NCBI GenBank assembly: GCA_946413265.1
Contig: CAMKJU010000001.1
Coordinates: 51,592 to 115,591 of the forward strand
Direction of reading: 5' to 3'
Source of the DNA: an uncultured Lentisphaerota bacterium
GTDB lineage: Bacteria; Verrucomicrobiota; Kiritimatiellia; RFP12; UBA1067
Length of the DNA: 64,000 nucleotides
Made by a program: the position numbers. Shown piece after piece: positions 12,001 to 15,000 of the stretch (position 1 is its first letter; each line of letters starts with the position of its first letter).

Positions 12001-15000
12001 AAGGACATCCGCCCGTACTGGGACGCGAACCGTGCCCTCATGGCCGACCGCGACATGCCGCGCAAGGAACGCCTCGACCGCATGGACGAGAACACCCGCA
12101 AGGCCACGGACGCGATCCGCGCCATGTCGAAGGACGAGGCCGAGCTCCGCAGCCACGGCATGAAGGCGCTCGCCGCCAAGCTGGCCAACCCCTCCGCGAC
12201 CGGCGACTCGTGGGAGCGGGCCGCGAAGATGCTGAAGGCCGACGGCGCGACGCTCCAGGAAACGCAAAGTGCGCTCCGCCTCTACGGCAGAGCGCACGGG
12301 TGGACGCGGGACACGGTGAACAAGCGCCTGCGGCTCCTCTCCGCTAGGTGGAAGTAGCCTCCAGCCGCGCCATGCGCCTCTCGTACATCGTCCTGTAATC
12401 GACGGCGATCCGCCCGGCGAGCAGGTTCCGCGCCCACCCCGCCGGGGCCATGCCGTACGCCCACGCCGCCTTCCGCGCCTTCACGGCGTGGTACGCCGAG
12501 AGCGTCACGCCCCCGACGTCCACGCCGTCCGGCCACTTCCGGCACAGCTTCTCGACCTCGAACCAGTCGCCGTCCACGAAGGGAACCTCCTCCAGGGCGG
12601 CGACCAGCCTCTCGGCGGGCGTCTCGGCCCTACGCGACATGCGCAGCCCTCCCGCTGGCATGCCAGGCACGGAGCGCGCGCCGCGTCTCCCGCAGCCGCT
12701 CGTGCGCCTTGCACCCGCGGAGGATCCGTCCCACGAGGCGCAGCGGCGTGACGTGCGCGGCCTCGGCCGCCCTGCCCACGCGGTAGCGCATCACGCGGTC
12801 CATGCGCACCCCGCACACCGTCGCGAACTCCGGCGAGCCGTCCCTCGAATCCTCCGCGATCTTCGCGTAGTCGTCGCCGCAGAGCGCGGAGGACGGCAGC
12901 GAGGCGTTCACCGCCTCCCACCCCACGCGGTCCATCTCGCCCTCGATCACGCGCACGGCGTGGCGCACGGCCTTCGCCGGCGCGTCGTCCGCAGGCGCGG
13001 GAAGCGCGGCGGGGGCGGGACGCGTCCCCTGCGCCCCGGCGAGCGCGTGGAACACGACATCGGCGGTCGCCGCCTCGTCGCCGCGCCGGTACTCCACGTA
13101 CGCCTCCGCGCCCGTCACGCAGTCGCGCCGCACGATGAACACGGGCGACTTCCCCAGCAGGACCGCCCGCCGCACCTCCTCCGAGCCGACGCACATCAGC
13201 CCGAAGGCGTGGAGCGGGTGCCACACGCCGGGGAACGACAGCATCGGCGCGACCACGCACGGAAGCCGCCCCGCCGTCCCCAGGAGCCGCGCCGTCGCGA
13301 TGTCCGCCCCGACGGGACGGAGCCACGCCTCCGCCACCGAGCGCTCCACGAACGCGGCCACCCCGCCGAGGTCGTCGCGCCCGAGGACGCGCCGGAGGTT
13401 CGACTCCAGGGCGCGGCGCACCGCGTCGGCGTCCGCCTCCTCGTAGGGGAGGATGTGCGGCGCGGACTTCGGCACGTACCCGCGCAGAAGCTGTTCCTTC
13501 AGCGTCTTCGTCGCCCACTGGCGGAACGCGACGCCCCTCTTCGAGTTCACACGGTAGCCTACCGATATGATCGCGTCGAGGTTGTAGCACCGCACCGTCC
13601 GCGTCACCGTGCGTTTCCCCTCGATGTCAACTTGGCAAAAATCTTGCCATGTTGATTTCTCATCCAATTCGCCATCTGCGAATATGTTCTTGAGGTGAGT
13701 GCTGATGTTGCGTCGTTTGCATCCAAACAACATCGCCATCTGCTTTTGAGTGAGCCAGACGGTCTCTCCGTCCATGCGCACGTCGATCGGCTCGGCCTCC
13801 GTTGGCCGATAGACGACGATCTCGCCGTTGTTCCCGTCCCTCGCGGCGGCACCCGTGCCGTCGCATGTACCCTGCGCGTTGGTGTAGCGGGCGCGCTCCG
13901 CGTTCGTCTTGCTCATGGTCTTCTAACTCCATTTGCACGATGCGATAAAGCCCTGCCGGATGTGGTTAGAAGACGCGCCACGGGTGGACGCGGGCCGACA
14001 TCTGGCAGGGCAAACGGTTGTGGATTACCCGTTGTTCCGTCGCGAGGGATAGGTCTTCTAACTCCTATTTACCTCAGAACGGCGCAAAGTATATCACACG
14101 CCCTCGCCCCCGCGCAAGTGGGAATTTTAGATTTTTGCGCTACGTGCGCTATGGCGCGGGCGCAACAGGCGGCAGCGAGTCAAGAAAATCGCGGGCGGAG
14201 CTGAAATCGCGTATTCCGTCCACATGCTCCGCCAAGTCTTCCGGGACGTGGTTCCCCATCGGGTCGAGGATGACGTCCACGCCTTCTCGGCGAGCCATCT
14301 TTATGGCTGGAATGAAATCGCTGTCTCCTGAAACGAGCACGACCTGGTCCACAAGCCGCTTGAGCGCGATCTCCACGAGGTCGAGGCCGAGGCGCATGTC
14401 TACGCCCTTCTGCCCGATGTCGAGCCGCACGTCGTTCTCGGCAAGCTCCGCAAGCGTCTTGCGGCCGCTGAGCAGCGCATCCTGCGTCTTCGGTTTCAGC
14501 GCGTAGCGGACGTATCCCGATCCAAGGCGTCCGCGCCGCAGTGCGACCTTCCTTTTTCCCGCGACGAGACGAAGGAACTGCGTGATTGCGGTGAACGTAG
14601 GCGACTTCGACAGGTCGATGCGCGCGTTCGTGATCGGATTCGTGACGACTGCCGAAATCGGAGGGCAATCGTAGTAGAAGATGCGGTAGAGTTCGCGCCC
14701 TTCCTTCTCGGATTCAGCCGCGTGCCGACGGCAGTAGGATTCCACGATGTCCGCGTTCCCGCCTGGATCCCTTCGCGAGAAGGAGAAGAGGTTTCGCGCC
14801 CTCGCGCGATAGAACCCGCCGTCGATAAGTATTGCCATCTTTGCCATGGGACGTCTCAATAAGTTTGGCCACGGATTCCTCAACTCCACTTTGGCGGGAG
14901 CGATTCGCAGCGTGGCCGTCTTTTATGCCAGTCCCTTTGTGGACCAGACGCGGTTAGTATACCACGACGCCGCCCCCGGGGTCAAGCGCACCGAAAAAGT

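Follow-up and report, generated by a model that had tools for sequence, protein, structure and literature searches.

A NYN nuclease gene preceded by a conserved, covarying TEG147-like leader hairpin in a phage-like element of an uncultured Lentisphaerota bacterium

The window considered here is a stretch of 64,000 nucleotides (nt) from an uncultured Lentisphaerota bacterium (contig CAMKJU010000001.1, positions 51,592 to 115,591) that covers a phage-like element. The minus strand of this element carries a stand-alone gene for a NYN/PIN-like protein, with its own promoter and a leader RNA whose structure is conserved and covaries among homologous loci. An earlier reading of the window without database searches (hereafter the sequence-only reading) had proposed such a stand-alone NYN gene with a promoter and a structured leader, and the same pairing of gene and leader recurs in hosts from at least six phyla (Firmicutes, Actinobacteria, Proteobacteria, Fibrobacter, Spirochaetia and Kiritimatiellae). 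The cassette is self-contained and about 1 kb long. The chances are about even that it is expressed in lysogens as a unit in which the conserved hairpin of the leader, called P1 below, guards or regulates the NYN protein, in a way that resembles the AbiF(Cd)-RCd22 pair and the type III toxin-antitoxin (TA) systems, while being a member of neither.

Structure and conservation of the leader RNA

The leader is about 102 nt long, from a transcription start predicted near position 14949 to the AUG at 14847. It consists of two hairpins: a 5' hairpin of variable sequence, P0, and the conserved core hairpin, P1 (coordinates in Table 1). P1 is made of an outer 7-bp stem (GGCCACG/CGUGGCC), an internal loop (CUGCGAAU / UGAGGAAUC) and an apical stem, CUCC(C)GC-CAAA-GU(G)GAG; it is present as a single copy in the window and no tandem repeats were found in the leader. 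The 7-bp stem, the CUCC/GGAG hairpin and two GAAUC motifs had been reported from the sequence alone and all of them are present, whereas the single long hairpin reaching to the AUG, in which they had been placed, is not the conserved fold. This long hairpin is the minimum free energy (MFE) structure of a 121-nt stretch, yet it is no more stable than shuffled sequences (z = -1.06 for the whole leader). Furthermore, the GGGAC that would close it by pairing with the GUCCC abutting the AUG pairs equally well with an upstream GGUCC, thus forming P0 (-33.6 versus -33.9 kcal/mol, each conformer having a probability of about 0.5). Both the GGGAC/GUCCC pairing and the AUAA..G/CUUAU pairing proposed with it are possible in the window, but neither is kept in the relatives. 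The core hairpin alone (z = -2.10) and a 92-nt RNA comprising the two hairpins (z = -2.09) are more stable than shuffled sequences.

The significance of the leader rests on its comparison with relatives and not on the fold energy of a single sequence. In the contigs of eight close relatives (protein identity 68–99%), the upstream regions diverge except for a 58-nt core that is nearly letter-identical to positions 14919..14862 of the window, with the consensus ACGGCCACG-nUGnGAaUCgCUCCCGCnAAnGUGGAGynGArkAAUnCGUGGCC. Conservation is stronger for the core than for the protein, as the core is almost letter-identical where the proteins share 68–80% identity. Each relative has its own P0 hairpin, unrelated in sequence, just after the -10 box; hairpins at the P0 position have a mean z of -1.5 over 77 loci, and P0 plus P1 is the MFE structure in six of the seven members of the window clade. 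A model derived from this clade (R1) also matches distant homologues at this position, though less strongly, and their outer stems show compensatory changes.

Two sets of contigs show the core in other surroundings. A 275-nt contig from another sample matches the window only over the 69-nt hairpin core (14858-14926) and departs from it to the left and right of this core; the flank of the contig, ...ATGTCGAAAATGGCCATA, is the start of another NYN protein of the MSKMAI type, and the core here outlives its flanks. The Logan/ENA contigs L167-L169 encode a 68%-identical NYN protein with the same core hairpin and a 430-nt upstream gap, in a setting that looks chromosomal and non-phage (FGE-sulfatase and GDPD genes).

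When 76 distinct leaders were aligned by MAFFT without structure fitting and the three-helix structure was then tested on the alignment, paired cells amounted to 83% versus 64.6% in shuffles and double-sided changes to 288 versus 100. The covariation score was 0.537 versus 0.224 for shuffled alignments, none of the 500 shuffles scoring as high, and slid controls did not exceed 0.18. A check of this kind had been suggested with the sequence-only reading, and covarying structure upstream of NYN homologues is what it revealed.

A second model (R2) was built from the 76-leader alignment, which includes leaders scoring with the Rfam family TEG147 and seven leaders of the window clade. It matches positions 14860..14918 of the window (39.2 bits, E = 8.6e-8), a match obtained partly by construction since window-clade leaders are among its 76 seeds. 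Of 80 viral and 80 genomic loci, 79 and 77, respectively, have an R2 match where one is expected. Upstream DNA is lacking for two of the other four loci, so that the motif is present in 156 of the 158 loci with sufficient upstream sequence; about half of the loci were R2 seeds. Within the family, the hairpin ends 17–35 nt before the start codon. In the reverse direction, a search of IMG/VR for the pattern AGTAN5CCCACYATAAGGG returned 37 matches, namely 30 with a NYN gene directly downstream, six complete orphan hairpins and one chance match. The window-type core has no match in IMG/VR; a metagenome collection gave three further matches to it, all three followed by a NYN gene.

Relationship with TEG147 and variation of the internal loop

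At the window leader, Rfam gives nothing (E ≤ 1 over 4 kb; E ≤ 10 over 200 nt), including RF03535 (TEG147), whose gathering score of 56.1 is not reached, and abiF. The leader located directly 5' of the NYN gene of Staphylococcus hominis matches RF03535 with 63.9 bits and that of Streptococcus phage Javan85 with 52.6 bits; seven Firmicute leaders match it over its full length with 34–40 bits, below the gathering score. One Kiritimatiellae locus (L124) bridges the two groups, with 30 bits for the Rfam model and 33 bits for the window-clade model. Judged from such sequence comparisons, P1 is a divergent variant or relative of TEG147 that escapes detection by Rfam. The novelty claimed by the sequence-only reading therefore has to be divided: no characterised example of a NYN gene with such a leader was found in the literature searched, but the RNA is a relative of one that is already known. 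As members of the RNA family occur in lineages in which they escape the Rfam model, a rebuild of this model would be warranted.

TEG147 and the window P1 have the same position 5' of a NYN gene and the same order of helices: a covarying outer stem comes first, then a non-Watson-Crick internal loop, a short stem in the middle and an apical C-rich/G-rich stem closed by a loop of about 7 nt, the whole being followed by a U-rich tail. P1 differs by its GYGA/GGAA loop, its CAAA-type tetraloop with a bulge and its displaced U-run. The AGUA/GAA loop of the sarcin-ricin type is absent from the window, where GCGA/GGAA lies in the same register instead. Over the family, the internal loop changes by clade in a constant register (AGUA/GAA in Firmicutes, GYGA/GGAA in the window clade, and U-A and G.U at the two tandem positions in the relative L167), which fits a recognition module. 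The GYGA/GGAA loop probably forms tandem G.A pairs. Actinobacteria have GUUGA/GAUGA. For the loop of RF03535, a sarcin-ricin motif was predicted by JAR3D (PMC13085918).

TEG147 (also named Teg147, sRNA85 or srn_0960, and typed as Cis-reg in Rfam) is known as a 60-nt bona fide independent small RNA (sRNA) of Staphylococcus aureus HG003 (PMC5826253). It comes from a genomic island (PMC5826253, PMC3053349), its locus in NCTC 8325 being 386294-386353, and no function for it was found in the literature searched. The apical loop of the Firmicute versions, CCC-ACCAUAA-GGG, was considered as a mimic of the anticodon loop of the initiator tRNA, a loop cut by some PIN-domain toxins; this candidate was dropped because the third base of the loop varies and the loop of the window clade differs.

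The NYN protein

The protein had been taken for a NYN nuclease with intact catalytic aspartates, and both points agree with the comparisons made here. Pfam identifies PF01936 (NYN) with 44.8 bits for a cut-off of 24.2 (2.4e-11), the match being confined to residues 141–194, and the protein also matches phrog_5783, a family of unknown function (5.5e-73). The AlphaFold2 model (predicted local distance difference test, pLDDT, 94.4) has a PIN-like alpha/beta fold whose best match in the PDB is the NYN domain of MARF1 (5yaa; E = 4e-4, template modelling score of 0.68 on the target). D9, D60, D150, D156, D175 and D177 are invariant across 61 homologues, and D9, D150, D175 and D177, with D60 and D156 in addition, correspond to the acidic cluster expected at the ends of the core strands of NYN/PIN-like nucleases. 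The protein is a predicted metal-dependent RNase of the NYN/PIN type.

Its fold and acidic active-site residues are like those of the NYN/LabA-like nucleases (PF01936; MARF1 5yaa; VPA0982 2qip), to which it adds a beta-rich insertion of about 65 residues (roughly 51–117). This insertion carries the invariant motif YRxFYYDCPP and has no structural counterpart in the PDB. PADLOC gives weak partial matches, to PDLC01154 NYN (4.9e-8) and to HEC-09 (2e-4), both over residues 145–194. The protein family is large, with more than 4,486 clusters at 90% identity (E ≤ 0.001).

Genomic context of the cassette

Among 138 distinct loci, 70 have a gene encoding a cI-like helix-turn-helix protein upstream on the same strand, and 85 have a recombinase gene downstream (tyrosine integrase in 55, serine recombinase in 30). 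No other conserved neighbour, and in particular no protein partner, was found among these 138 loci, which extends to the family the absence of an adjacent protein antitoxin that had been noticed in the window. In the lambdoid E. coli phage ev099, the NYN gene lies directly after cI; in phiE202, it is located between a TA pair and int, and in Javan85 between the repressor gene and int. In phage lambda, the position directly after cI is occupied by rexAB. The NYN genes of ev099 and of most Firmicute prophages are therefore found in the same location as rexAB or as the sie/abi genes that lie between repressor and integrase in Gram-positive bacteria; this analogy is positional only and involves no relation in sequence or mechanism. 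The window departs from this arrangement: on its minus strand, int is followed by a gene encoding a small membrane protein, then by the NYN cassette and finally by a RhuM-like gene, so that the NYN gene is downstream of int and has the RhuM-like gene downstream of it. Taken as a whole, prophages carry the cassette in their lysogeny or cargo slot, a part that is expressed in lysogens, and the protein family is almost always accompanied there by the same folded RNA.

Promoter, translation start and coordinates

The promoter is of the sigma-70 type, TTGACC and TGgTATACT being separated by 18 nt and matching the consensus at 10 of 12 positions, plus the TG of an extended -10 box. An extended -10 box (TGnTAnnnT) is found at the equivalent place in all six relatives with upstream sequence. 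The near-consensus promoter described by the sequence-only reading is therefore well founded. A GTG at 14889 was rejected as the start of the coding sequence (CDS) and the ATG at 14847 was retained, since close relatives share a start MxKMAIL preceded by a Shine-Dalgarno (SD) sequence. The SD of the window is reduced to GAGA; GGAGG or GAGG is found in the relatives other than a 99%-identical twin. The lack of a good SD, rightly pointed out before, is thus a trait peculiar to the window and its twin.

An arm and the loop of P0 (14937-14947) are perfectly complementary over 11 nt to a site of the CDS (14344-14354), about 490 nt into the NYN gene. Because about 0.25 such matches are expected in the stretch (own estimate), this complementarity was treated as probably due to chance.

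Table 1. Coordinates of the NYN cassette and its neighbours on the minus strand of the window
Feature	Position	Strand	Evidence or remark
-35 hexamer TTGACC	14980..14985	-	promoter scan; relatives have a TTGAC/TTGCA-type -35 at equal distance
Extended -10 TGgTATACT	14956..14964	-	promoter scan
P0, 5'-terminal 7-bp hairpin CUGGUCC-ACAAAG-GGACUGG	14928..14947	-	fold -8.3 kcal/mol, z = -1.66
P1, conserved core hairpin, about 51 nt	14867..14917	-	relatives, covariation, R2 match, fold z = -2.10
3' tail AAACUUAUU, U-rich run displaced from stem	14858..14866	-	weak terminator at best here
GUCCC abutting the AUG	14848..14852	-	can pair with GGGAC 14935..14931, as an alternative to P0
NYN/PIN-like nuclease gene, 232 amino acids, begins MAKMAILIDGGFY	14149..14847	-	stop codon included
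RhuM-like gene	13916..12633	-	N-terminus matches PADLOC candidates PDC-S05/S23
Tyrosine integrase gene	15694-16899	-	

Resemblance to known RNA-guarded systems and possible mechanism

The best functional analogy is provided by AbiF(Cd)-RCd22 from a Clostridioides difficile prophage, in which RCd22 reduces transcription and, by binding to the protein directly, neutralises it, in cis as well as in trans (PMC12373285). In this pair as in the cassette, a prophage-borne gene is preceded by a structured non-coding leader. The two differ in that AbiF is an Abi_2/HEPN-like protein associated with two abiF motifs unrelated to P1, whereas the cassette encodes a NYN protein: Pfam gives NYN only, without Abi_2, and there is no match to the Rfam abiF family.

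Type III TA systems (ToxIN, CptIN and TenpIN) comprise, in this order, a promoter, a structured RNA, usually a terminator and an endoribonuclease gene, and take part in abortive infection. The antitoxin is an array of tandem repeats that the toxin processes, and the toxin has the ToxN/AbiQ fold. The cassette shares the order of promoter, structured RNA and nuclease gene, but its protein has a NYN/PIN-like fold. The likeness to type III systems drawn by the sequence-only reading does not extend to their defining features, as neither a tandem-repeat RNA nor a ToxN fold was found. By analogy with both systems, a guard RNA resembling that of the type III TA systems or RCd22 is plausible.

The following model could be drawn for the cassette. 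The nuclease would have P1 as its cognate RNA partner. P1 would limit expression in cis, being terminator-like in most relatives; in the window, it might also be enclosed by the alternative helix GGGAC/GUCCC, which would occlude the AUG. The leader, or a short RNA made in excess, would bind the NYN protein through the non-Watson-Crick internal loop and the apical loop. This binding would restrain the nuclease, or else the nuclease would cleave the RNA as a form of autoregulation. If the supply or the integrity of the leader RNA then dropped, for example during a superinfection with host shut-off, the RNase would be released and would cut RNA, so that the lysogen population would be protected. 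Autoregulation by self-cleavage, known for the eukaryotic NYN RNase Regnase-1, would be another form of this mechanism.

A broader proposal is only tentative, namely that the TEG147-class hairpin and the NYN gene define a class of RNA-protein TA or abortive-infection systems that would be new and very widespread, and in which a single hairpin would serve both as attenuator and as antidote of a PIN-fold RNase. It is likewise possible, rather than probable, that such a class relies on a loop of the sarcin-ricin or tandem-G.A type and is carried in the lysogeny slot by temperate phages from Firmicutes to Proteobacteria and by a GC-rich rumen lineage. If the RNA restrains the nuclease or senses for it, a function would be gained for the orphan sRNA Teg147 of S. 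aureus, the PIN/NYN fold would join those known from RNA-antitoxin systems, and there would be an explanation for a cargo gene that is common in gut and rumen prophages.

Alternative explanations

Several observations weigh against P1 being an RNA partner of the nuclease. The version from the E. coli phage ev099 is a plain long hairpin followed by U7, devoid of special loops, which suggests that some lineages may need no more than a simple terminator. In the window, the U-run is displaced from the stem and interrupted (AAACUUAUU), and a 166-nt metatranscriptome contig (14927..14762, no differences) reads through from the leader into the CDS. Because of these two features, attenuation may be weak here, the RNA evidence being made of thin metatranscriptome contigs. 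G.U and A.C are about equally frequent in the helices (35 versus 27), without asymmetry, and covariation alone therefore cannot fix the transcribed strand. P1 is a single copy where type III TA systems have a tandem-repeat array, and the nuclease has no full-length match to any PADLOC defence-system protein. Lastly, the six TEG147-type hairpins of IMG/VR that lack a NYN gene (L180, L185, L186, L194, L205 and L211) imply that the RNA can persist, or act, alone; these orphans may have been left behind by cassette swapping, or may be copies of the RNA alone.

Two of the orphans have recognizable genes behind them. An Abi_2 gene lies about 660 nt downstream of the hairpin of L194 (Pfam 3.5e-35), and an integrase-like open reading frame (ORF) comes next in L185.

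The main rival explanation is that P1 is purely cis-acting, as a leaky terminator and mRNA-structure element by which an accessory RNase expressed in lysogens is kept low, or as a sensor of a host or phage factor other than NYN, with neither contact between RNA and NYN protein nor antitoxin role. The conserved internal and apical loops far exceed the needs of a terminator, the type of loop tracks the protein clade, conservation within the window clade is higher for the RNA than for the protein and the terminator features of the window are poor, all of which make this explanation rather unlikely. It keeps some weight, as most relatives have the hairpin and a U-run directly before the SD (at least five U in the 8 nt after the stem for 71% of the hairpins of the family), the E. 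coli version is a plain hairpin followed by U7 and Rfam types TEG147 as Cis-reg. Moreover, the 60 nt of the independent Teg147 (PMC5826253) are compatible with termination at the hairpin. Attenuation by P1 is thus plausible for the family and uncertain in the window.

It is improbable that the functional structure of the window is the one long hairpin, acting as a phage-specific translational switch in which GGGAC/GUCCC at its base would occlude the start codon and P0 would be the ON conformer. The two conformers are indeed isoenergetic (-33.9 versus -33.6 kcal/mol), with equal probabilities, and the window lacks the SD that its relatives have. However, the pairing is not conserved, P0 plus P1 prevails as MFE structure in the clade, the whole leader is no more stable than shuffled sequences (z = -1.06) and P0 forms first during transcription. 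In addition, the ribosome-binding site is no less accessible than with a shuffled 5' part; as no consistent effect was seen when seven clade members were compared with shuffled 5' parts, its sequestration by the 5' part of the leader was rejected.

Finally, it is very unlikely that the RNA is an independent trans-acting sRNA or a decoy (target mimic or phage counter-measure) with which NYN merely shares promoter and terminator: six full hairpins are orphans in viral contigs, with other genes behind them, and Teg147 figures among the bona fide independent sRNAs (PMC5826253), but the motif is present at 156 of 158 NYN loci, NYN is present at 30 of 36 motifs and no candidate target is known.

The phage-like element carrying the cassette

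In a self-comparison of the window, positions 1-13067 and 50934-64000 are identical (0 mismatches). The window is therefore a circular phage-like element of 50,933 bp read past its end, and features found in these two intervals are duplicated because the circle wrapped. The element is read as a temperate, podovirus-like phage. Besides its tyrosine integrase, it encodes a Sak4-like annealing protein, a Cas4-type exonuclease, a helicase, a primase and an SU10-type head-tail adaptor; most of its phage structural genes have no PHROGs or Pfam match. The whole element is present in one DNA run from a sheep gut metagenome. A 2881-amino-acid ORF located at 3712-12357 on the plus strand includes a P-loop segment (GGNGSGKST) and possibly encodes a giant internal virion protein or a polyvalent protein.

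Just past the start of the integrase gene, positions 16921-16938 (minus strand) match the 3' end of the transfer-messenger RNA (tmRNA) over 18 nt (RF00023 positions 346-363, E = 0.047). From this sequence match, they are possibly the attP core of a phage integrating into ssrA; no tRNA or tmRNA gene was found in the window.

On the other side of the cassette, the leader of the RhuM-like gene (13917-14065, minus strand) contains GGTCTTCTAACTCC twice, as exact copies at 13917-13930 and 14052-14065. It also includes nested inverted repeats (13918-13932/13960-13974 and 13950-13963/13998-14011), which make it a second structured leader.

The 320-nt gap between the gene of the small membrane protein and the NYN promoter harbours a perfect 22-nt palindrome, CCAAGTAAACTAGTTTACTTGG, at 15213-15234. 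It is flanked by the inverted repeat CGCGCGCGCGTA/TACGCGCGCGCG (15190-15201 and 15267-15278; region 15188-15278) and may serve as an operator, as a terminator or for recombination.

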